From Vermamoeba vermiformis (lineage: Eukaryota): a DNA stretch of 20,000 nucleotides. The notes beneath the pieces are model-generated. The model was not told where the DNA came from, did not search any database, and saw nothing but the letters and a program-made list of their open reading frames with translations. Made by a program: the position numbers and the translations under genes. The number at the start of each line of letters is the position of its first letter. Positions within the stretch are counted from its first letter, which is position 1. The DNA lies in the NCBI GenBank assembly GCA_045837725.1, contig JBEWZL010000084.1:557737-577736 (forward strand), written 5' to 3'. Shown here in pieces: positions 1 to 19,276 of the stretch.

Positions 1-59
1 AGATCCTCACTCGCATGCCAGGGGTAAGTTTAGTTTGTGTGTTGGTGGCTACATCAGTG

Positions 60-405
60 AAGGTAATTGACTCGTAAAAATCCCGATGAATTTTTTTTGC
101 TCCAAGGTCAATTGATTGGTTGGCATAAACACATTGCTCCACCTTTTTCTTCTTTGGTAATTTCTCTTTTGCCTTGGTTGGATTTTTTTGCTCACTTGCA
201 ACATTTTGTTGGATTCGACTTCAGATGAGCATGTTCAGCCATTATTTGGCTTGGATCAATAGGGCCTTCATCAACATCGAGGCAAAGAATTTCATTAAGT
301 TTTTTGGGTGACTCTGCAGGTTTTTCTATGTTGTTGTTAGGTGCTGAAGCTCCTTTCTTTGGTCTTCCTTTTTTGGATGCTGATCAGATGGCTATTTTTT
401 TCCAT
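60..405 (-). pseudogene. Degenerate Lys/Pro-rich ORF fragment with an AT-hook-like KGRPKKG motif, divergent from the transposase remnant; probably transposon-derived
   Basis: Minus strand reads KGRPKKGASAPNNNIEKPAESPKKLNEILCLDVDEGP..., then stops and frameshifts; no other recognisable domain. Confidence 0.3.
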
Positions 406-449
406 GATACCAACAGCTAAATAAATATCTGGTGCTTCTTTTTCAAATG

Positions 450-2590
450 AAATGCATTAAGAAGGTCGAGAGCAGGAAGGATTGATGAAGATTGAAAAGA
501 AGAAAGACTTTGAAAAATTGATCTCCGAAAGAATGTTGCTCAAAATCACCAACTAGCCGTTACAAATATGCTAGGCTGTAATAAAATGCACATTATCTTT
601 ATAGCGATGATGGAAGCCCCAAAAAAGCGTTATTACCCAAAAAATTATGAAAAGACTCTCATGGGAGTGTTGGAAGCTCTTGCATCCAAAGTTTTGACGG
701 ATCTTAGCTCAAATCAGTGGCAAAGTGTTAGAAAAGCAGCTGGACTTCCAATCTATCGCAACGAACTATCAAAAGCATTCAATAGAACCCTTAGTGATAA
801 TTCTTCCATCGTTTGAGATTTTGTAATGGGGCTTTTTTTGAGCCTGAATTTTTAATTTTGGAGATTTTGGATCTGTACACTCAAAAACAAGCATTCAAAC
901 CTCCAGAAAAAAATGATATCAGCGTCAAGCTATCCTGGGACAATAGGAACATTTATAACAACAAGAAGACAAATGGATCAGTAGTTTTTAGCTTTCCAAA
1001 TGTGGCCAAATCTCAAAGCTCATCCAACGTACATGAATTGCAATTGCTGCAATTCCAGAGGACTCTAGCAACCTAAGAATGCTGTTAAGAGAAGTAGAGT
1101 TGGATGAATTCATAGCAGAATATAATAACAAAATTGTGAATGTTAATGGAAAGGAGTATAAAATTATTTTGTTCACATCCACGGATTGGATGGCATTAAT
1201 TGCCAAACTTGATGATATAGCTCTTCCAAATACAAGGAGCTTGGATGATCTCATATGCCCATTCTGTGGTTGTAACAAGCACTACTTAAGATTTGGTTGG
1301 CATGAGGAGCCATTCAAGCTTGGAGATATTTCATTGGAAATTGATGATTTTCCAAAAGCAGCTCTACCCTCTCTTTTATTAAAATCTCTGCATGGAGTTA
1401 CAAATATGCTTTCAAATGTCCTTGTTCTCCTCTTTAACCTGATACCCAAGAACTCAGGCTGTCGTACTCAGTTCAAGGTACTGTAACCTGCCAAATAACT
1501 CGGAATTTTTCGCTGAATTTTCCCGAGCGGATCGCGAACGAAATCAGTTACTTGGTCGAACGATTGATTAATTTAATTATATATATACATAATACACCAA
1601 ATTTAAGGCAAGCCAGCACTAATTGGCAAAAATTTTCAAACCAAATCCAAAATTAAACTAACGCGAATCCAAAATGTACAACGAATTTTGGCTTTCCTTG
1701 GGTACAAATCAACTAAAAATAATATTTTAAACCAACTTTGCGTGGTTTTGTGCAAAGCTTACCCAAAAATCAAAACCAAATCCAACTTCAATCCAACCGA
1801 ATCCAAAATAACGACCGAATTTCAATGTGATAACCAAGAATTAGGTTGTTTATGATTATAAACACCTATTCTTGTTGTGCCAAGGCCAAAATTTTGTTGT
1901 GTATGCCTAATTTTTATCGAACTACCAACGCGCGAACCGAAAAAAAAATAAAAATTCTATTTGTGTACGGCTGGATTCGAACTTGGAAAATTTACGAGTT
2001 ATTACGCAGTTTACAGTAATTCTTCAAAAAAACCTTAGTGGATGGGATGTGAAACAAAGCATGACTCCAATGCTCATGGATCCACATTTTTGGTGTTGGA
2101 TTCAGTACGAGTATTTAATAATTTTGAATACAAAGAGTGCCCCAAAAAACAAGACTTTGATGTCTTGTGAACTGCAAGACAAGCATTCATCAGTGTCTAC
2201 CATGGAAACCTTTGGTGGTTGACTGTGACTCAACATTTTATGACAAATGAAGCTTTGAGATTTGCTCAGATTGACAACGAAGCATACAATACTTTGCAGG
2301 AAGGTGTAGAACATGCTCATTTGGACGATAACAAGAGCTCTAATGTCACTTTCAAGGGTGGTAATTCGAATGCAACTGGTACCAACTGCTGGCAACAGAT
2401 CCCCAACAAGCAGCACATTAGATGAGAGTTAAACAAAAGATATCTGGCTCCAGAAGGCACTTTGCCCCTTCATTATAGATTTATAACTCAGAAGACAATG
2501 CTGGTGACTTGGAGTATCCCAAATATGCCCCTTCTCAACTAAAATGGATTAGCACTTGGTTCAAGAATGACCCAATGGACCAGTAGATGT
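450..2590 (+). mobile_element. Decayed Transib/RAG1-like DDE transposase gene (frameshifted, split by a MITE)
   Basis: Motifs across ORFs 568-816, 813-1076, 1079-1486 and 2019-2425 occur in the same order as the RAG1/Transib core: VKLSWD (first Asp), FTSTDWMAL (second Asp), CPFC (CxxC), LHG (DxxH; copy at 11.9 kb reads YDLMCGVTN), TVTQHFMTNE (cf. RAG1 TNYFHKTLAH), LQEGVEHAHLDDNK (cf. ASEGNESGNK). Several stops, frameshifts and a deletion. Confidence 0.7.
1481..2016. mobile_element. 536-bp MITE with a TA target-site duplication (Tc1/mariner-type)
   Basis: Imperfect ~31-bp TIRs: left CTGTAACCTGCCAAATAACTCGGAATTTTTC vs reverse complement of right CTGTAAACTGCGTAATAACTCGTAAATTTTC. TA flanks both ends (1479-80, 2017-18). 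Removing it restores the transposase frame (FKV|ILQKNLSGWDVKQ). Internal AAACCAAATCCAA repeats. Confidence 0.85.
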
Positions 2591-2746
2591 AAAAAATTAA
2601 ATAAAATATTTGATAGCTTACTAACTGATTGTAAAATACAGCCTTTGCTTACACCAACTTAATACCTTAATAGAAGTCAATATCCTGAGTCAAGGTTATT
2701 ATTCGGTTGGGTGGTTAATTTTTGTTTATTTTTTCATTATTTTTTT

Positions 2747-2763
2747 GGATGTGATAGTCTTGA
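2747..2763 (+). promoter_or_regulatory. Candidate shared cis-element GGATGTGATAGTCTTGA upstream of the P450
   Basis: Exact 17-bp match to 10314-10330; both copies follow TTCAT plus a T-tract and lie 50-130 bp upstream of a start codon. Confidence 0.4.
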
Positions 2764-2892: not shown

Positions 2893-4870
2893 ATGGTAAC
2901 AATTTTAATCTTATTGTTTGTCTTCATATTTCTGCTATCTCTAGTGTACTCCAATTGGGTAAGTTGTGAATATGCACTAATTATAAGTACTAATAGATTT
3001 CTACTTAAGTACCCTGCATCATACCCTAAAGGGCCGCTGCGGCTTCCTCTCTTGGGAAATGCAGCCAACTTATTGTTCTCCAAGGAAAAACATTTTCACA
3101 AGTAACAATTACATTTTCATATGAAAGCTCACTTTTTATCACTGTTTGTAGGAAGCTGAAGGAGATGGTATCTCAATATGGTAATCATTTGGGGTTTGCT
3201 ATGCTTTATTAATTTCAACCATATTAAGGGACTTTCTTCAGTCTTACAATTGGTCAGAGTGAAATGGTAGTGTTGGCAGATGCTAATTTGTGCTATGAAG
3301 TATTGGTCAATCAAGGTTGTAATCACAGGAAATCAAATCAGCTTTTAACGCATTGATTTCAGGATCCAAGACATTGGGCAGGAGATTGACATTTGCACAT
3401 TACATTTATCAGTAAGTTAGTTATTTCAGTTACGGATAATGTCTGACAAAAGAAAAACAGAGGTTTTTTGGAGGATTGGGACAAAAAACGGTAAATACAT
3501 GTTAATACAGATTGTAGTATGACCATTATCAGACCAGAGGAATCGCGAGGCATTGCCTCTTCAAGTCCTCCTAAATGGCAAGCTGCAAGAAGTCTGGTTG
3601 CCTCTACTCTTCTTAAAGTTGACATGTTTGCCAAATTTGAGAGCATTTTGAACGAAGAAGCTCAATTCTTGGTGGATGCTATTGGTTACTTCTCTTCCAC
3701 GGCTGATAAGGTGAAGATAAAACAAATCTCATGTTTCTTAACTCTTACAGGTGGATATATGCACGCTGCTCCAGTTGACAACGTTAAATACAATGATGAG
3801 AGTTATCTGCAGCGTAAGGCTTGGAAAAATTGGGAACGAAGATTTGGTTTCAGAAGATGGCATAAGCATTTTAGCAGCAATCAACAATATTTTTGATTAT
3901 TTTTCAGCCAGTAATTTGGAATTGAGCTTACCAAAGCTGAGATATCTGCCCCATAGTAGATATACAGCATTTGTAAGCTCAGTTAAGCTACTTAGGACCC
4001 TTTTTAATAGGGCAATATCTGAAACTCCTCCTTCTTCTCTATTAGCAGAGATTTGTGAACTTACAGGTGAAAATGATCGGGAGGAGGTAATTACAATTTG
4101 CGAAGATCTGCTCTTGGCAGGCTCAGACACAACAGTAAGTTACTCTTTTCAAAGAACTTACAAGTAAAATGTTTACAGGCAAACACAATTGCATATTGTG
4201 TGAGGCAATTGGCAAATGATAGAAGCATCCAAACAAGACTGAAAAGAGAATTGCAGTTGAACCCTTCTGATAATGCCTTCCTACGCTCAATTGTTAAAGA
4301 GGTTTGGTTTGGGTGCTATGAATTTTGATGGTAATTGCTTAAGTAGACACTTCGTTTGTACCCTACTGCTCCAATCGGGATCCCTCATAAAGTGTTAGAG
4401 ACAGTTAGAATAGGATCTACAGAGATTCCCCCAGGGGTAAAGATTAAATTAAAAATCCAATAAGAATCTGACTACTTTTGAGGTTGTTATCCTCCCTTGC
4501 ATTTATGCTCTTCATACTTCCCAGAAGTGCTGGAAAAACGCTGAGGAATTCAATCCAGAAAGATTTTTGGAAGTGACATCAACTCAATGGTTCATCCCTT
4601 TTTCTGCAGGTGGCAAAGAAAATAATTTAATTTAATATTTACATTTATGTAGGACCTAGGATGTGTATTGGAAAAAAGCTTGCTGAACAGGAGATCACAG
4701 TTATTTTGAAAAGCATATTTCAAAAATATTCTCTGCATTTGGTTGGAGAAGTAGCGTGGACTGACGGTATAGTTGCCTGTCCAAAATTAACATTTTAATG
4801 TTTTCTTCTAGATGCAAAATTTACTGTTGGGCCTACCAAATTTTCAGTTTATGCTAAAACAACTGACTAA
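2893..4870 (+). CDS. Cytochrome P450 monooxygenase, ER-anchored type, ~12 short introns
   Basis: Spliced reading gives an N-terminal hydrophobic anchor (MVTILILLFVFIFLLSLVY), PKGPLRLPLLGN hinge, WQAAR, I-helix LLLAGSDTT, K-helix E|TLR, FNPERF and haem loop FSA|GPRMCIG. GT-AG introns of ~40-50 bp restore the frame; stop TAA at 4868-4870. Confidence 0.95.
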
Positions 4871-5014
4871 CCACGCTTACAATACTGAAAAGCAAATCTG
4901 CACACAATGCCAGCTTGATAGTCATGTAAAAAATTCTTAATTTTTGAAAATACCTTTAAATAAAATTTATTCATTGTTTTTTGTGATATTTTCCATACAA
5001 TCAGGGTGAAGACA

Positions 5015-5709
5015 ATGGAGATATTCACTATTCTTGAAAGCTCTGAACCCAGTGAGCAGGCTAGGGTCAAAGCTCTTATAAAAAATATACAAGAAATTGG
5101 AATAAAGAAACAAATACACGTATTATGCAACAAGCCTATTTCAGGGCTTAATGGACATTGTATTTCAGTTCCTAGCATTCAACCACAATACTTGAAGCTG
5201 TACTTGTGGAGTTTTGTTCAATTTAAGCGAGTTCTTTTCATTCAACCAGGTAGGAATATTGATATAGTCAACATTGGCTAAGTTTGACAGGGATTCTGGT
5301 TTTGCAAGACTTTTCTGTTTTGGAAAAATACTCAGAAACTTTTCAGGCAGCTCCAATGTATGATGCTCCTGACATATTTAGCAGTGCAGTAATGCTATTG
5401 ACCCCATGTACAAGAACCTTCAACATGCTTCTATGGCGATACAGTCGGCATTTAGGGGCCATGAATAATGTCGACTTATTTCTCAATGAAGCCTTTCCTG
5501 AGTGGGAGACAAATTCATCACAGCGCCTCTCTACCAGTTTTAATATGCCTTTGCCCGTTTGCAAGATTAAACCTGCTTATTGGAAGCAAAAGGCAGAGAA
5601 GGAAGGAATATATTTAATTAATTTCCAAAAGATTTCTACTGCCAAATCTGAAACTGATACTCCAGAAATAGCATATTTCAAAGAGAAGTACCTTGTGTTG
5701 ATGGAGTAA
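5015..5709 (+). CDS. Glycogenin-like GT8 family protein lacking the canonical catalytic motifs (putative pseudoenzyme)
   Basis: Two exons (5015-5249, 5291-5709; 41-bp intron). Aligns by eye to GT8 (KLYLW..FKRVLFI, AAP..PDIFSSAVMLLTP, FLNEAFPEW..LSTSFNM), but DxD reads QPG and the C-terminal HF reads NF. Confidence 0.8.
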
Positions 5710-5837
5710 TAACAGTCTGTCTGATTACTATGAATTCCCTGTATCTGTGCAGACCCATTTGTTAAACTGCTTGACACTGTGTTAAATTTGGTAGTGCTTG
5801 CCATAATTAATAAATAATTATGCAATTATTATGCAGG

Positions 5838-6035
5838 GTAGCAAGGGGCTTGCATTGGGCATTGATGACAGAGTGGAATTCATCAGGAGGCATAAAACTT
5901 GCATTGATTTCTCATCCTCCTGAGACTCATTGATTAATGGTGGGGCAAGCGGGACTCAAGTTTGCAGTACATTTCTACAAGAAAATAGAAAAACAGGGTA
6001 TGATGTGGCTTTGAAAATAGCACATCCTCTTAATG
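5838..6035 (+). pseudogene. Protein kinase N-lobe exon fragment
   Basis: AG...GT-bounded segment reading ...SS*DSLINGGASGTQVCSTFLQENRKTGYDVALKIAHP, i.e. a Gly-rich loop plus VALK; one in-frame TGA; no downstream kinase subdomains seen. Confidence 0.45.
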
Positions 6036-6272
6036 GTATGTCAATAAACTATCATATAAGGTCACCTTTCTCCAACCGCTTCACTACCAAATGTAAAACC
6101 GAAAATCACACCTGTGATTTTTATCACAAATCATGGAGAATCTTGTGTGATTAAAATTTATCACTATGAGATTCTAGTCACACTGTGATGACCGTATTGC
6201 TAGCAATACATACTACGGGATTATTCTATACTTAATAAAACACTAGCAGAATTTTGTAATTGGATAACTTTA

Positions 6273-6513
6273 TCAAAAAAACCTTGGTGGGTGGGATGTG
6301 AAACAAAGTATGACTCCAGTGCTCATGGATCCACATTTTTGGTGTTGGATTCAGTACGAGTATTTAATAATTTTGAATACAAAGAGATCCCAAAAAAACA
6401 AGACTTTGATGCCTTGTGGACTGCATTCATCAGTGTCTACCATGGAAACCTTTGGTGGTTGACTGTGACTCAACGTTTTATGACAAATGAGCTTTGAGAT
6501 TTGCTCAGATTGA
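6273..6513 (+). mobile_element. Second fragment of the Transib/RAG1-like transposase
   Basis: Near-identical to 2024-2274 (GSTFLVLDSVRVFNNFEYKE...LWWLTVTQ). Confidence 0.9.
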
Positions 6514-7457
6514 GGGAGGAACTTTTAATGTGTGGAAAAATTGGCAAAGTCCATTTTTGTCTGGAAACACGTAATTATTGTACCAAAAACTCTAACAGAA
6601 TGTACAAAAAATGAGAGTGGATGGTATGACAGGTTGGTTTTAAAAAAATAATTGGGAGTACGTCCTAATGCGATGGCAAGTATGCTGAAGTGCATTTTGT
6701 AGTATGCTCAAAAAATAAAATAGCTTTTGGTTTGTAATTCTGTGCTAGAAATTTGCACAATTGTGGAGAGTTAACTGCAGGTTCCACATGGATTTGGCAA
6801 AGAGATTTATAGCAATATGTTACTGATCAGGAACTGCCAATGACTCCAACTTGAGTGAATCTCCTAAACATTGCCGTAGCAAAGAAGTGCATTTCTCTGG
6901 TTTCTTCTTCTTTTGCAGGTTGCTTTTGTTGCTGAATTCTCTCATGGAAGGAGAGATGGTCTGGGCTTATTGATCTTCAGCTTAGGGAGGTGGCACCTAA
7001 TTTTGTTAGATTAAAGTCAACAAATTGAGAAGTCTAATTAGACTAAACATATTCATACCTATGAAGGTTAATAGTGCCATTCTTCATAATTTTGATTTTT
7101 AATCTGGTTTTATTTTACCGGATTAAATCTGTAAATTGAGATTTGTAAAAATGTGAATTTAGTTGCCAATTGAACTGGTCAACTAGCATGTTATAAATTA
7201 GAATATTCTGAACACTTTCATGTTATTCTCATGTTTATAGATGTTCTGCAGCAAGAGATATAAATTGAGTTTTGTGAATCCCGTCTAGGAGAAATTTGAA
7301 AATCCATTTTTTCATATTAACTAGGCTACCTGTAATAATTTTTTGTGATTGTATAGGTATTCTGTGGCAGCAAGTACCAGGTCCACTAAGATTTGGGTCA
7401 GTAAAATGAGTTATAAAAGAGATAAAGCTAAATCCAGTTTAGCTTTTCCTGATCGAG

Positions 7458-7539
7458 AGATGAGAGTTAAACCGTTCATTATAGATTTATAAACTCAGAA
7501 GACAATGCTGGTGATTTGTAGTATCCTAAATATGCCCCT
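7458..7539 (+). mobile_element. Third fragment (3' tail) of the same transposase element
   Basis: Matches 2420-2532 (AGATGAGAGTTAAAC...TTCATTATAGATTTATAA-CTCAGAAGACAATGCTGGTGA...AAATATGCCCCT) with a short deletion. Confidence 0.85.
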
Positions 7540-7739
7540 GCAGCTTGTAGAATAAGAATATTATTTTTTTATCATTACTGGAAGGCTTGAAAGCCCAGCA
7601 TGGTTGTGTCAATCCAAGCAATTTGAAATCATTTGGTAAATCTCCAATTTAATTTCAAACAACTCAGCCAGCATCTAAATCTACATGGACACATTGAAAG
7701 GGCAGTAAATTGAGTATATAAAAAATTCAGTATAGATTT

Positions 7740-9000
7740 AAGACGATGGTAGGACTTTGCTTACAAGTTATTTCACTGCAGTGGACAATCCTCTTCTCTT
7801 AATATCAGTGCAAAATTGATCTATATTTGAATAATTTTTGTTTGGAGTTGTGCAGTTTCAATCTGGCTGAAATGATCTTGCCATTTTGTTGACAGGTTTC
7901 ACAGTTTTGAAGTGGCACTAACAACAAGTGCATCTCTGACATCAATGAGCAATTCTAATGCAATAGTCAAATTGAACATTGGTTTTCTCATAGACTCCTG
8001 GTCTATGTCGTTTAAGGAAGCATTTAACCAGCTTCCCACTAATTTAGCAGAAGATTTCAATTTTACAAGATCTTTAGATGTTATTAACAATTTGGATAGA
8101 AAGAACAATCATAAGCATAGAGCAAGTTCATACAAGCACTATGATTCTTCACCTAGTGCAGGAGCACCAATCTTTCTATAAGGAGGAGGAATGTAATGAG
8201 TAGAGCACAATCTACTGTAGCTCATATCCTGTAACATAAATAGTTTGTCTATCACAACACCTGTCAAGTAACTTCAATTGTTACACAAGCCCGCTACAGC
8301 ACAGGAAATTTCATTGGAGACTTTTGATACACTCCTTGCATGTTATAAAATATATATAAAGCGTTCTACGATAAAATAAAAAAATTTACTTTTCAGCGAA
8401 AGTTCCTACGAAGTTGGAAGCAACTTGTACCAAAAATAGAATTTTTTTAACGGCAGTATTTTGAGCTGGCGACTTCCGTTGCAGTGTCCGTGTCAGTGGT
8501 ATTACTGCAAGCCGTTGGCGCGAACTCCGCAGCTCTTCGTGGAAGCTCGCACGGAAGTTACCTACGAAAGTTCCTGCTGCAGTGCAACTTCGTAGCAACT
8601 TTGAAACAGCAAAAAAACACCTCCGTTCAAGCTAGAACCAGTGGATAGTAGTGTACACAGCACCCCTCCACTGCTATCCACTTGATTCAGCTACGAAGAA
8701 GTGCGAGGAAGCTCGCCAGAACAAGTCGGTAACAACTTGCTACCAACTTGGTACCAAAAATAGCAACTTCGCAAAAAAGCAAATTTTTTTAAATTACCAT
8801 AGAGCACTTTATATATAAATATGAATATGGAGGACTCTACTTACTCATTATGCTGTCTACAGCACTGCATAGCTACATTGTCATTTCGATTGGTGCCAAA
8901 GGGTACAAAAATTTCACTAGCAATTACATGCTGAGATCACTGAGAGAATATAATCTTGGCGAGTTTCCATGTCCTACTTTTGGTAGTGTTGAGATTTCAT
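7740..9000 (-). pseudogene. Spliced pseudogene of unknown family, interrupted by a MITE
   Basis: Exon-like frame from ~8228 to ~7740 (DMSYSRLCSTHYIPPPYRKIGAPALGEES*CLYELALCL*LFFLSKLL...) with scattered stops, preceded by a CAG acceptor. An upstream exon-like piece at ~8845-9000 ends in a GTAAGT donor. Confidence 0.4.
8351..8817. mobile_element. ~470-bp MITE with ~50-bp imperfect TIRs in a TA-rich site
   Basis: Left TATATATAAAGCGTTCTACGATAAAATAAAAAAATTTACTTTTCAGCGAA vs reverse complement of right TATATATAAAGTGCTCTATGGTAATTTAAAAAAATTTGCTTTTTTGCGAA. Interior is CpG-rich with repeated GAAGTT/CAACTT motifs. Confidence 0.8.
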
Positions 9001-9084
9001 CTATTTGAAAAATATATCACTGAAATGAATGCTCTAAGACTTGTTTGAGAATTTATATTTATGGATTGAAGTCAAATTGCATTC

Positions 9085-10182
9085 TTACTCATTGTAAGCA
9101 GAAGCCAAAATGGCAAAAATATATTCTATCACATCAAAAGGTAACTCCAAAGATACACGAAAGCAACGATGATCTGGATTTGCTCCAAATGCACTCCCAG
9201 GAATAATTATAATATTTTTCTTTTCTTTCAGAGAGGCAGCTATATCCATGTCTTTCAAATTCCCAGGAAAATCTTTAAGTTGTACCCAAACAAAGCATAG
9301 TATCTTATTTTTGAATATCTGTATTTTAGGATAGAGAAGTGCCATTTTGTCTATCAAAACTGATCTTTGTTTACACAAGTCATCCAGCTGCTTTCTCCAT
9401 TGCTGGTAAGCATCAAGACGAGTCAAATTCACATCTGTTATTACAGAAATTACTTCTGTTAAAGCATTGGATATGTTTCCTTGAGTATGAAAGGCTAGGG
9501 TTTTGATACTCTCTGCCTCTAGTGCTGAGGGGCAGAGAAGCACTCCCAAACGGAGGTTAGGACAAGATAAAACAAATTTACCAAAGCTTATTGCTGTATA
9601 CACTCCTTGTTTGATATTGTGTATGTATGAGTTATCTTTGAAGTGCCAACAGTAAGTTGCATCAGCAATCACTTTGACATCCTCCAAGCAATTACCAATC
9701 ATTTTTAGTTCTTTTTCAGAAAATTTTTTCCCTGTTGGATTGTGGGGATCATTAAAAATGAATACATCTGGGCTGGCTTTCTGTAAGTGAGATATAGTGG
9801 TTGCATCTATTTCCCCAGCAGAATTTAATGGTATTGTGACAAAGTTGCAATTTAAGGCAGAAGCTTGAGTTTGAAACATTGGGAAAAAAGGTGATAAAGC
9901 AGCAACTTTCAACGTTCTCTTTTTTTCAATAAAGATGTGAAGAAGAGTTAAATGTATAGCATTTGTTGCACCATAAGTAATTACAATAGATGATGGATCA
10001 ATAATCCCCAGAAAATTTAAATACTGTGAAAGCTGAGCCTGTAGATTGGGGTAATGAATAACTCCTTTTTCTCTTTCAGGGTTTGAAAAAAGATGCTTCC
10101 AGTTTTTGATTAGCTGCTCTGTCAACAACAAAGGAGAGGGACAGGCAGTAGGAACTACATAGCCTGCATCAATAGGATCCAT
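9085..10182 (-). CDS. PLP-dependent aminotransferase class I/II (fold type I), intronless, 365 aa
   Basis: Motifs ITYGATNAI, SPFFPMF, NDPHNPTG, DATY, SFGK(PLP Lys)..PNLRLG and IPGSAFG..FRVS in one uninterrupted ORF. Confidence 0.93.
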   Translation of the reverse strand: MDPIDAGYVVPTACPSPLLLTEQLIKNWKHLFSNPEREKGVIHYPNLQAQLSQYLNFLGIIDPSSIVITYGATNAIHLTLLHIFIEKKRTLKVAALSPFFPMFQTQASALNCNFVTIPLNSAGEIDATTISHLQKASPDVFIFNDPHNPTGKKFSEKELKMIGNCLEDVKVIADATYCWHFKDNSYIHNIKQGVYTAISFGKFVLSCPNLRLGVLLCPSALEAESIKTLAFHTQGNISNALTEVISVITDVNLTRLDAYQQWRKQLDDLCKQRSVLIDKMALLYPKIQIFKNKILCFVWVQLKDFPGNLKDMDIAASLKEKKNIIIIPGSAFGANPDHRCFRVSLELPFDVIEYIFAILASAYNE

Positions 10183-10313
10183 TATGGTTGACCAATAGAA
10201 TTTATATTAGTCTGTTACTTCCAGCACAAGCCAAAACGAAAATACAATATTACTACTTACTATATTTTTAAGAGTGTGTTTGTAATTCTAAATATAATTT
10301 TTATTCATTTTTG

Positions 10314-10330
10314 GGATGTGATAGTCTTGA
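10314..10330 (+). promoter_or_regulatory. Second copy of GGATGTGATAGTCTTGA in the ~200-bp divergent promoter of the aminotransferase and GT8
   Basis: Exact match to 2747-2763; lies between the ATGs at 10182 (-) and 10380 (+). Confidence 0.4.
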
Positions 10331-10379
10331 TAGTTTTGTTGACGATTACCGAACAGTGAACCATTTATTTTTCATAGCC

Positions 10380-11152
10380 ATGTTTGCATATGTTACTTTC
10401 GTTGGTACAAACAATGAATACATTGACTATGTTATAGTATTGCAGAGATCTTTGCATAGGCATTTGAATAAGTACCCTTTGCTATGTGTAATTACCAAAA
10501 CTGTTAGTGAAGAAAACATTCTGAAACTGGCATCTGAGAACATCAAAACAAAGGTGTTAGAAAAAGATGTAGAGTTTTCTACAAGTACCAAGCACAACCT
10601 CAGAGGTCCGGTAGTTTTCAATAAGCTACAATTGTGGACTTTTCTGGAATACTCAAAGTTAGTGTATTTGGATTCAGGTATGAAAGAAGAAGTTGAAGTG
10701 CAAGTCTAACATTTGTAGATACAATTGTATGTCAAAATATTGACCACCTTTTTGATCTGAATGTGGATTTTGCTGCCTGCCCTTCATCAGTTTCACCTGA
10801 TTTGTTTAGTACAGGAGTGTTTGTTTTCAAGCCTAGCATGGACCGCTATAACGAGGTGATGGACCTCTTACAAAAGAGCTCTGAGCTTAATGGAGATGGA
10901 TTTCTGCTGAATTCCATCTTTCCTGCTTGGAATGATTCTTCAAATGGCAAATTGCCCTTTGGTTACAACATGAGCATTTCTGCTTCGTGGGATTTCCCTG
11001 AATACTGGAATTGGAGGCTTAAGCAAAACCGCATATTTGTAGTTCATTTTGTAGATAGATGGAAACCTGACAGACCAATGCCCTCTGCAAATAACTTAAC
11101 AAAACAAATTCTTGAATATTGGATGGAGCTCAAACAATTGAAACACAATTAA
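10380..11152 (+). CDS. Glycogenin/galactinol-synthase-like GT8 glycosyltransferase
   Basis: Two exons (10380-10677, 10719-11152; 41-bp intron). AYVTFVGTNNEY, FNKLQLW..EYSKLVYLDS|DTIVCQNIDHLF (DxD intact), FSTGVFVFKPS, LPFGYN, VVHFVDRWKP. Confidence 0.93.
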
Positions 11153-11909: not shown

Positions 11910-12177
11910 TTATTAAAATCTCAATGCTATGATTTGATGTGTGGAGTTACAAATATGCTTTCAAATGTCCTTGTTCTCCTCTTCAACCTGATACCCAAAA
12001 CTTTTGTAGGTGGGATATGAAACAAAGTATGACTCCAGCACTCATGATAAAGTTCTTTTCCCATAACTTACATTCACAACTGAGTGAGTTTTTTATTTGA
12101 TCAAATGAACAAATGGCCTGAAGCTCCTGTGAATTTTAACTTGCCCAGAGTCAGATCCACAGTCTAGTGTTGGATTC
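11910..12177 (+). mobile_element. Fourth fragment of the Transib/RAG1-like transposase, retaining segments deleted in the other copies
   Basis: Matches 1377-1449 and 2040-2103; reads LLKSQCYDLMCGVTNMLSNVLVLLFNLIPK and has ~105 extra bp between CTCATG and GATCCAC. Confidence 0.85.
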
Positions 12178-13293: not shown

Positions 13294-13580
13294 TCAAAGA
13301 TTTGTCTTACAATGTCCAGTCCTGCTTCTTTGGCCATTCCACTGTACCAGCAATTTGTCTCCTTGCTTGTCATGAATTTTCTGCACAGTGTTGCACAATT
13401 TCACTTGCCCTTTAAATTTCTTCAATAACTCTTGTGCACCAACAAGTTGTTCATCAGTAAACCATTCATCATATTTGTCATTTGAAATATTCTCAACAGC
13501 AGTATCTTTGAATTTGACTTTGTATTCCTTGTTTCCATTTTGAATGCACACATCAACAATCTGTTGAATGTCGTAAAGTC
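13294..13580 (-). pseudogene. Tandem chromodomain-coding fragment
   Basis: YDIQQIVDVCIQNGNKEYKVKFKD...YDEWFTDEQLVGAQELLKKF fits the chromodomain pattern; it is followed by a second partial unit TVQKIHDKQGDKLLVQWNG. Upstream frame is closed by stops. Confidence 0.7.
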
Positions 13581-13834: not shown

Positions 13835-14262
13835 ACTTTGGTGTACAGCGCCTCGCACCAGTGTACACCTAAGTGTATGCCCCTTTGCACCCATACACTT
13901 TAGTGTACGCCTCTTCGCACCCATACACTTTGGTGTACGCCTCTTCGCACCTGTGTACACCTAAGTGTATGCCCCTTCGCACCCATACACTTTAGTGTAC
14001 GCCCCTTCGCACCTGTGTACACCTAAGTGTATGCCCATTCGCACCATACACTTTAGTGTACGCATCTTCGCACCCATACACTTTGGTGTACGCCCCTTCG
14101 CATCCATACACTTTAGTGTACACCTCTTCGCACCTGTGTACACTTTAGTGTATGCCCCTTCGCACCTGTGTACACCTAAGTGTACGCCCCTTCGCACCCA
14201 TACACTTTGGTGTATGCCTCTTCACACCAGTGTACACTTTGGTGTACCTTCACACCCATGCA
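13835..14262. repeat. Minisatellite of ~13-14 mixed 30/32-bp units with a TACAC-N4-GTGTA hairpin core
   Basis: Units CCATACACTTTAGTGTACGCCCCTTCGCAC and CTGTGTACACCTAAGTGTATGCCCCTTCGCAC. Confidence 0.95.
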
Positions 14263-15150: not shown

Positions 15151-15652
15151 ATACGCTAATTTATCGGGTGTTAATATCCACCACGTACTAACTTGTATAT
15201 TATTTTACTTACACCTGCGGCCGTTCGCGTTCAAGGTCTAGCCTCGCGGAGATGCATCGCACTTTGAAATGCACCAATGAACAATCTGAATGTTAAATGA
15301 GTTAGTAATTATTGTATTGAGTAGTTGATAACTTACCTGTAATCAAGATATGCCGTTGGATCGCACCATTTATATGAGAAATATCAAAAAACATCGGGGT
15401 TAGGGTTGTGAAAGCTGTTTTCGAAAGACAATCCTTCTTTGGCTCAAGAAGGGAATTCAAGAAGAAAGACAGGCAGTGATGAAAATCCCTTCCCCTACTA
15501 GGCAATCCCTCCCTGAGACAGGAAGGGATTTCGAAAGAACAAAGGGAAAAATGAAGGAAATTTATATATATAACAAGGCTTGGCCATATAGGGGCTAGCC
15601 CAGTTATGACCATCTTGAACACAGGGTTAACTGAAGTTCTGAGGCAGCAAAC

Positions 15653-15870
15653 CAAGTTCCGAGGCTGTCGAAGCAAGTCCCGAGGCTGTCGAAGCAAGTT
15701 CCGAGACTGTCGAAGCAAGTTCCGAGGCTGTCAAAGCAAGTTCCGAGGCTGTCGAAGCAAGTTCCGAGGCTGTCGAAGCAAGTTCCGAGACTGTCGAAGC
15801 AAGTTCCGAGGCTGTTCAAGCAAGTTCCGAGGCTGTCGAAGCAAGTTCCGAGGCTGTCGAAGCAAGTTCA
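15653..15870. repeat. 21-bp tandem repeat CAAGTTCCGAGGCTGTCGAAG, ~10 copies
   Basis: Directly visible near-perfect array with degenerate flanking units. Confidence 0.97.
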
Positions 15871-16059
15871 ATGGTGATTGAACAAGTTCCAAGGCAATTG
15901 AACCATATTCAAAACACCTGCAAAGTTCACTAACCCAAAGAATAGTTAACAAGTAAATGAACATTTATTAAAACTCATTAGTCACAAGTATAGTGCAGTC
16001 ACAAAGTAAAATTGAACTAAGTCAAACACTCATGACAGTGCATAAACCTACTTAAAACA

Positions 16060-18098: not shown

Positions 18099-19276
18099 TT
18101 ACAAGGAGTAAATGTCTAAATTAATGAAAGAATACATTTGTTTAATTTGAGCAATTTTTTTGGCACCGTTGCCTTGAAGAACCATTTTGATGAGAACAGT
18201 GACAGATACAGGAGAGGTCGGGTCATTGATGTCAAAATTAGAAGAGCAATCAAGAAGCAATAATTTCTTGCCATTTTTAATCATATCTTGCAACAATCTA
18301 AGGCATGCAGGCTTCGCAGTTTCTAAAACCCATAGATAAGGCAAAATGAAGAACAAGTCATGTGCCATGGAAGGAGTGATAATGATGGCGCTCGTTTCCC
18401 CCTATTATGACAATTAGATAAGAATTATTGAATGCAAATAGTAAACTTACCAATTGCCAGCCTAAAAGTTCTTTTGACGGTTCCTTGCGGTGAATTTTTT
18501 CTTGCAACTGCAACATTGTTGTGTTGATTGTAGGATTGCTTTTGAATAGTTTGAAGCATTCATAAATGCCTTGAACTGTAATTGAGTTCCTGGATGAATT
18601 GATAACCTACTTGAATGGTTAATATGTAAAGGCAAGTGAAACAAAGGGCACGTACCGGAATATGGGAAATAGCTGGTTGAAAATGAGCTTGCAAGGTGTA
18701 GAATACTTTGGTAGTATCTCTAATTACAATCTTGGTGTTAGAAGACAATAAAATGCCAGAAAAAACAACTTACGTAATATCAATAACCTCTAAGTCCAAA
18801 TGTCGTTGTCTTAACAAGGAGATTGTTTTGGTGTCGCTGACCTTTGCGCAAAAAATTGAAGGGGGTTGGGCTGGTAGTGAAGGAGGCTGAAAGTTTGTTG
18901 TTGCCTCGCAGTCATCGCTCTCAAGGGCCGTTGCAGGACAACCATTTGGAGAGAAGCGCTCAAGTACTTCAGGTTCGGAGCTTGTGTCTGCAAAACTAAT
19001 GAGCTTGTGAAGGGCAAAAGAAGTAAGGGAACAAACCATCTTCGGATTGAATCTTCTGTTTGCCCATATTGTGCACTCTTTGTACTGTAAAAACTATCAG
19101 TAAATTATAAAAATAATTATGATATAACTTACTTTCTTCTGCCGTTGGTTTGTAGCCAGCAGGTTTTCCTATTTTGCGTGCCAGATGTCAGTCAGTCACT
19201 TGTCACGAAAAAAAAGAAATGATAATAGTTACAACTTACCAGCATAAAGAAGCATTATTTTATCAGCAAGGTTCAT
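18099..19276 (-). CDS. Seven-exon gene of unknown function (~285 aa)
   Basis: Six ~48-71-bp GT-AG introns give an open frame MNLADKIMLLYA|GKPAGYKPTAEE|IQRVHNMG...|DTSSEPEV...DIT|DTTKVFY...HIP|VINSSRNS...GWQL|GETSAIIITPSMAHDLFF...DIYSL*; no family recognised. Confidence 0.65.

Follow-up and report, generated by a model that had tools for sequence, protein, structure and literature searches.

An apparently disarmed GT8-fold protein beside a DxD-bearing paralogue in an AT-rich gene cluster of Vermamoeba vermiformis

Results

Genes and features of the locus

The window analysed here is a stretch of 20,000 nucleotides, the last 20 kb of contig C84 in a 43-Mb assembly of Vermamoeba vermiformis. Table 1 summarizes its features together with those of related regions of the genome. 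Part of the window belongs to an AT-rich biosynthetic cluster, whose block has about 36% GC compared with 42-56% in the flank. Within the window, the cluster genes follow in the order P450, GT8 gene A, aminotransferase and GT8 gene B. Upstream of the window, the cluster holds a FAD monooxygenase, an intronless Trp-DMATS, a beta-propeller gene and a half ABC transporter; a small Cys-rich membrane gene and a predicted multi-pass membrane gene also belong to it. Gene A stands directly behind the P450 gene, with 144 nt between the end of the one and the start of the other, and 4.7 kb from gene B.

Table 1. Features of the window and of related islands. Positions without a contig name are those of the window; names beginning with C are contigs of the assembly.
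Feature	Position	Strand	Description
AT-rich biosynthetic cluster	C84:544967-568888 (window 2893-11152 is part of it)
Decayed 3.3-kb DNA transposon	C84:557160-560498 (most of it at 1..2762)		Inverted termini, broken transposase-like frames
Cytochrome P450 gene	2893..4870	+	475 aa, 12 introns of 40-51 bp, open frame, heme Cys motif
Decayed copy of transposon left end	4949..4988	+	27 nt ahead of the gene A ATG
Gene A	5015..5709	+	217 aa; joined exons 5015-5249 and 5291-5709
Gene A, exon 1	5015..5249	+	N-terminal strand-helix-strand-strand of the GT-A fold; ends Q-P-G at the DxD site; helix 2 and putative lid loop about 25 residues shorter; K61 retained
Gene A, intron	5250..5290	+	41 bp, phase 1, GT-AG, branch-like CTAA
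Gene A, exon 2	5291..5709	+	C-terminal half, glycogenin/Gat1-like
AATAAA	5809..5814	+	100 nt past the gene A stop; possible polyadenylation signal (putative function)
Further transposon sites in the window	6273-6490, 7492-7539, 11942-12046
Separate MITE-like element	8351-8817		467 bp, 50-nt inverted ends
Class I/II PLP aminotransferase-fold gene	9085..10182	-	Intronless; head to head with gene B
Transposon terminal-repeat motif	10314..10329	+	Last part of a left-end fragment; the gene B ATG follows after about 50 nt
Gene B	10380..11152	+	GT8 paralogue, 243 aa; exons 10380-10677 and 10719-11152
Gene B, intron	10678-10718	+	41 bp, phase 1, GT-AG
Chromo domain frame	13294-13578	-	PF00385, E 5e-6
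Tandem repeats	about 13960-14250 and 15600-15880		Repetitive frames on several strands
DUF6939 fragment	18099-18401	-	E 5e-7
Further transposon sites elsewhere	C84:546533-546975; C238:6378, 6439, 11159, 11221, 26077; C73:182456; C242:7-26
Second island	C238:6600-32000		Trp-DMATS, UGT, two GMC oxidoreductases, ABC, FAD oxidase, P450, GT7, canonical GT8 gene C, GT32 directly upstream of C, FMO, pyruvyl transferase
Third island	C73:147500-185000		Trp-DMATS, FAD oxidase, two DUF6875, GT25, UGT, intronless GT8, GT7, ABC genes, pyruvyl transferase, methyltransferases, P450, GH3, sugar epimerase/decarboxylase
Fourth Trp-DMATS	C152:267094-268039		Adjoins a flavin oxidoreductase

Four DMATS loci were found in the genome, three of which (C84, C238 and C73) lie in AT-rich islands; at the fourth, on C152, no such island was evident in 50 kb. 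By its gene families the host resembles an amoebozoan. The Trp-DMATS of C84 is closest to the structures of bacterial 5/6-DMATS and PriB. Each of the other two islands has several glycosyltransferase genes, one of them a GT8, besides ABC, P450 and oxidase genes, and no second disarmed GT8 was seen in the 17 genome stretches scanned. All three islands reach, or come close to, the ends of their contigs; together with the 6.8-kb contig C242, they may be pieces of one or a few larger regions broken by repeats.

From three RNA runs, which share only the species label, 48 partial reads were obtained, nearly all of them on T-rich stretches near 2714-2834. There was no read depth in these runs over genes A and B and the aminotransferase, and next to none over the P450 gene. 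The cluster may be silent in the three runs, or the runs may come from another organism. The missing depth does not separate gene A from the rest, because its intact neighbours are equally without it.

The ends of the island DNA transposon read CAAGACTATCACATCC. An exact 20-mer of this end has 7 copies in the genome, on C73, C84, C238 and C242, and pairs of ends bound elements of 443 bp and 3.3 kb. The ends often lie 30-150 nt ahead of island genes. The decayed left end before gene A has a score reached by none of 1000 shuffles, and among 328 AT-rich windows that of gene A alone reaches it without an intact motif; the AATAAA inside this end may serve the P450 gene. A shared promoter element upstream of genes A and B was considered and rejected, since copies occur in both orientations, some face the 3' ends of genes, and pairs bound elements. 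The ends near genes A and B may be co-opted promoters or no more than insertion marks. Judged by their motifs, the transposase fragments presumably resemble RAG1/Transib-type DDE enzymes, and a Pfam search of them gave no match. A related, less broken transposase-like frame was seen on C266.

Gene structure and splicing

The initial annotation had placed a 41-bp phase-1 intron at the same codon of both GT8 genes, and our analysis agrees (Table 1). All open splice choices were enumerated, 17 for gene A and 9 for gene B, and those were chosen that leave the conserved strands intact on either side and use the canonical cag/GTA donor and the CTAA branch-like site. The intron then splits the third residue of Q77-P78-G79 in gene A and of D98-S99-D100 in gene B. 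Alternative splicing as a way of restoring the DxD in gene A was rejected: none of the 17 open choices does so, and the one that yields Q-P-D removes the following strand. Gene A had also been described as an open, spliceable ORF despite its divergence. This was borne out, as its 217 codons and canonical GT-AG intron carry no stop, frameshift or broken splice site of the kind that marks a pseudogene; the frames of the nearby transposons, unlike that of gene A, are already broken. Gene A has no hydrophobic segment, so its protein is likely cytosolic.

The position of the shared intron bears out the common descent that was read from it, but the site is not private to genes A and B, as the D-A-D of a third GT8 gene, C (contig C238), is interrupted by a phase-1 intron of 43 bp. 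Little can be read from the equal length of the two introns, which is unremarkable next to a P450 gene with 12 introns of 40-51 bp. Three other GT8 genes were found in the genome (C73, C109 and C294), a count that is a lower bound, and their DxD is uninterrupted.

Family membership

Gene A belongs by descent to the glycogenin/Gat1-like subfamily of GT8. When compared with each other, the A and B proteins are identical at 42 of 178 positions (24%, E 3e-19), and their local alignment score is 173 against a mean of 33 and a maximum of 53 in 500 shuffles. No similarity between the two genes was found at the DNA level (best blastn E 0.44), and the duplication is therefore old. Gene A scored 72.5 bits on a family profile built without A, B and C, and hhalign aligned it with the family at a probability of 98.9% over 214 columns. 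When Pfam GT8 (PF01501) was searched exon by exon, neither exon of gene A matched. A search of its own genome with exon 2 of gene A returned only gene B, and with exon 1 only gene A.

Relatives were collected with exon 2 of gene B (698 found), and the best 150, one of them being B itself, were examined. The family alignment consists of the 112 of the 149 hits that have a DxD-type motif and at least 70 residues ahead of it; the other 37 were left out. Conservation of the DxD in this alignment is partly circular, because the motif was a selection criterion. According to motif class, 102 of the aligned relatives are glycogenin-like (PD.GWPD), 4 are Gat1-like and 6 are other. For exon 2 of both genes, the best match among solved structures is Pythium Gat1 (6mw5; E 2.6e-5 for A and 5e-16 for B), and glycogenins are also among the best relatives. 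The best matches of gene A are 24-32% identical across the aligned part. Its top BLAST score is a glycogenin-like hit with 71.6 bits; gene B is lower with 69.3 bits. The model of exon 2 of gene A (pLDDT 81) was built with the family alignment and so is not independent of the family; Foldseek returned Gat1 and glycogenins first for it, with 6mw5 on top (E 3e-5). The exon 1 model has the order strand-helix-strand-strand-helix (pLDDT 79), and when used by itself in a fold search it had no hit at the cut-off of E<=0.001. A search of the ESM Atlas yielded generic nucleotide-sugar transferase look-alikes and nothing else.

The branch of gene A is the longest in both trees (3.9 under LG+G4 and about 10 under a mixture model). 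A clade of A and B was recovered by no tree and is unrejected (p-AU 0.66). Both genes fall outside the glycogenin clade and the supported four-member Gat1-like clade, the position of gene A being unsure with such a long branch. Genes A and B have a Ser in common at a site occupied by Asn in all 112 aligned relatives, a residue state that favours their sisterhood; some rare residue states are common to A and C.

Residues lost and kept in gene A

Residues were mapped by hand to Gat1 numbering through alignments with 6mw5 and the structure section of bioRxiv 10.1101/764241, where D117, D119, H231, N149 and T180 are the residues through which Pythium Gat1 contacts Mn and the donor. The initial annotation had claimed the loss of the DxD and of the C-terminal His, and both losses were found again: the DxD site is Q77-P78-G79, and the metal His is gone, with N189 in its place by one alignment and Y186 by another, and no His within the last strand. 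Gene A is thus without all three Mn ligands (the equivalents of D117, D119 and H231). The KPW lysine is missing as well. In the donor pocket, N149, D176 and T180 of Gat1 are replaced by S109, N137 and L141; the FN.G motif has S109 and A111, and S13 takes the place of the uracil-loop Tyr. The gene is short by about 25 residues in helix 2 and the loop ahead of K61, a loop that we take to be the donor-covering lid of glycogenin. The acceptor-groove residues that Gat1 supplies from the same subunit, D141 and F143, are M101 and D103 in gene A. Gene A has none of the sequence marks of an active GT8 that were looked for (DxD, His, KPW Lys, donor-pocket Asn and Gln/Thr). At the 69 columns conserved to at least 85%, gene A matches 23, compared with 41 for B, 45 for C and at least 42 for each of the 112 relatives. 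Judged by its residues, gene A encodes a catalytically disarmed protein of the GT8 fold.

What exon 2 has retained includes D106, D140, N144, W150 and P173-x-Y175-W176. Of the columns at which gene B has the family consensus, gene A agrees in 19 of the 41 that are highly conserved and in 6 of the 39 others (Fisher p=0.004). Such preferential keeping points to selection after the divergence, since neutral decay favours no such columns. It carries a hydrophobic residue at 65 of the 81 hydrophobic columns, against 21 of the 97 polar columns. As every ligand residue is lost while the hydrophobic core is kept, the gene was under selection after its disarming and before any release. In simulated neutral drift (substitutions only, 3000 runs per step), the frame was open in 4.3% of the runs at 80% identity and in 0.4% at 65%, levels well above the 24-32% identity between gene A and its best matches. 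These signs indicate that gene A evolved under selection for its fold after it was disarmed, which is past selection and not proof of present selection.

No orthologue of gene A was found among 283 longer candidates or among 93 metagenome pattern matches. A search of 11 candidates with gene A gave one match, a near-identical 82-aa piece of A itself, and this fragment contains the one variant of A seen in another dataset (V to I). The clusters that hold the two near-identical A fragments have one member apiece, and one indexed run contains two 151-nt pieces identical to A, while no RNA dataset was listed as containing the gene. Of 206 candidates, a search with the A/B pattern returned one, an ordinary DxD-bearing Gat1-like gene. 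This metagenome gene has in-frame TAG codons, suggesting a ciliate-type code, and is related to A only through the family. As these searches gave no orthologue from which to derive dN/dS, present-day selection on gene A is unproven.

Gene B

Gene B retains the DxD, H209, K82, D159 and K215, that is, all three Mn ligands and both lysines. In its donor pocket, S130, N157 and G160 stand where Asn, Asp and Gln/Thr are expected. The Asn of FN[SATG]G occurs in 149 of 149 of the best hits from the 698 relatives, and the Gln/Thr of GD[QT]G in 148 of 149; gene B has neither. The description of gene B as a DxD-bearing neighbour therefore stands for the DxD itself, but the near-invariant donor-pocket residues are missing. 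By these residues gene B is non-canonical, and it may have reduced activity or altered donor specificity. Between Gat1 and glycogenin, the Gln/Thr site differs with donor choice (bioRxiv 10.1101/764241, structure section), so the changes in gene B may merely shift specificity. Complex prediction for the exon 2 pair of A and B scored 0.15 and 0.18, where the mark was 0.34; it used half-domains, without alignments or folded controls, and was counted neither for nor against a complex.

Discussion

The explanation that we prefer, tentatively and as a possible rather than a probable one, is that gene A is a non-catalytic partner subunit of gene B in a small-molecule pathway. Both Gat1 and glycogenin form dimers with the acceptor groove between the subunits (bioRxiv 10.1101/764241), and in a docking model of Gat1 (a docked pose, the complex being unsolved) this groove is lined by Y220 from the opposite subunit and by W221. 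The matching residues are Y175 and W176 in gene A and Y195 and W196 in gene B, although only 4% of the 112 aligned relatives have a Trp at this column. In the proposed mechanism, A would be a soluble, disarmed GT8 that selection kept folded, and it would pair with B through the conserved dimer face. B would bind the metal and the nucleotide sugar, while the other half of the cross-dimer acceptor groove would come from A, or A would stabilise B. The pathway might proceed from a tryptophan core that is prenylated, oxidised by the P450 and the FAD monooxygenase, transaminated, glycosylated and exported by the ABC transporter. We infer here the expression, the A:B dimer, the activity of B, the pathway and its product. 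Several points weigh against a partner role. The groove residues of its own subunit (D141 and F143 in Gat1) are lost in A, its long branch would also fit relaxed constraint, its top BLAST score is not gene B and no tree joined the two, gene B may itself be impaired, and C238 has one canonical GT8 with no disarmed copy in its scanned part, so that a cluster of this kind can do without a partner. Of the pseudoenzyme reading in the initial annotation, the GT8 fold stripped of metal and donor residues and the signs of purifying selection hold up. The heterodimer and the acceptor-binding role stay conjectural, no result points to self-resistance, and gene B as the supposed partner itself departs from the canon.

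A more far-reaching form of this partner reading, which we regard as unlikely, is an obligate asymmetric A/B heterodimer derived from a glycogenin/Gat1 homodimer. Here the groove of A would take a prenylated-indole aglycone and B would have a rewired donor pocket, and the cluster would represent an undescribed, transposon-assembled family of prenyl-tryptophan glycoside clusters in a free-living protist.

Catalytic loss together with selection for the fold would also fit a stand-alone binder, whose old acceptor pocket holds, chaperones or sequesters a pathway intermediate or product with no contact to B. The place of gene A right after the P450 gene and 4.7 kb off B, and its likely cytosolic protein, agree with this; the replacement of the same-subunit acceptor residues does not, and we think such a role rather improbable. 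About the same holds for a once-constrained duplicate that was recently released and is now drifting or silent, its open frame reflecting the short time. The longest branch in both trees, the 23 of 69 conserved columns kept against a minimum of 42 among the relatives, the transposon-rich setting with a decayed element end beside the start codon, the amino-acid change V to I as the sole variant seen, and the lack of RNA depth over A in the runs of the species label all point that way. Nevertheless, the splice signals are canonical, the frame is open and an AATAAA lies downstream; the loss of the ligand residues with the core kept must predate the release; and the RNA absence holds for intact neighbours too.

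A rewired enzyme, acting as a metal-independent transferase or as a hydrolase through K61, D106, D140 and the C-terminal lysines, is less likely still. According to passages of PMC7185993, GT14 and bacterial GT6 enzymes have lost the DxD and are active without metal, GT14 through basic side chains, and gene A does have K61 and D140, with K192 and K197 near the former His site. However, A has also lost the Asn, Gln/Thr and Gly of the donor pocket, the Tyr of the uracil loop and the lid. We consider it least likely, indeed very improbable, that A and B are both impaired and that any glycosylation comes from the glycosyltransferase-rich C238 and C73 islands. The UGT, GT7, GT8, GT25 and GT32 genes of those islands could serve, and B lacks two residues that are near-invariant among the best hits, but it has its three Mn ligands plus K82, D159 and K215, and the site of the missing Gln/Thr varies with donor choice.

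Disarmed glycosyltransferase partners are an already known kind. When compared to Gat1, the Skp1 alpha-galactosyltransferase (6mw5), the likeness lies in the single cytosolic domain, the P-x-Y-W motif and, for the proposed A:B pair, a dimer with an inter-subunit groove; the differences are the lost equivalents of D117, D119, H231, N149 and T180 in A, and the context, which is a small-molecule cluster for A and B and Skp1 modification for Gat1. Glycogenin-1/2 has the same fold as A and B, and most aligned relatives are of the glycogenin type. However, A (217 aa) and B (243 aa) end after the catalytic domain, with neither a glycogen-synthase-binding tail nor a YSYLPA-type segment, and the metal site is absent in A.

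Passages of PMC7185993 describe COSMC (C1GALT1C1), a paralogue of the T-synthase that has lost the DxD and the activity and is scaffold or chaperone of the active copy. A and COSMC are both DxD-less paralogues, but COSMC is a secretory GT31 protein with a demonstrated partnership, while that of A is our proposal. In plants, the GT8 proteins GAUT7 and GAUT1 form a heterocomplex; one member serves as the anchor of the other and may lengthen the acceptor groove (passages of PMC11820401). Both are type II membrane proteins of the Golgi that make pectin and belong to a different GT8 subfamily, whereas A and B have no membrane segment. AknT and EryCII of Streptomyces are cluster-encoded dead enzymes with Cys-less P450 folds that activate GT1 (GT-B) glycosyltransferases (passages of PMC10054333). 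A dead helper encoded in the cluster is what A would have in common with these systems; as such a candidate, A is eukaryotic and a GT-A paralogue of the very enzyme that it would help. No disarmed glycogenin-like GT8 and no protist DMATS-glycosyltransferase cluster were reported in the literature that we searched, mostly at the level of abstracts and with few subscription journals.

Should gene A be a drifting duplicate and nothing more, it is in itself ordinary, and the useful lead that remains lies in the clusters. What the islands suggest is that a protist has tryptophan metabolites carrying prenyl and sugar groups, made with bacterial-type prenyltransferases, and the cluster genes are all small and directly expressible. 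If gene A is a working partner, it is a case of a homodimeric glycogenin-like enzyme that has parted into one catalytic and one disarmed subunit, and a failure of gene B when expressed alone would be explained.
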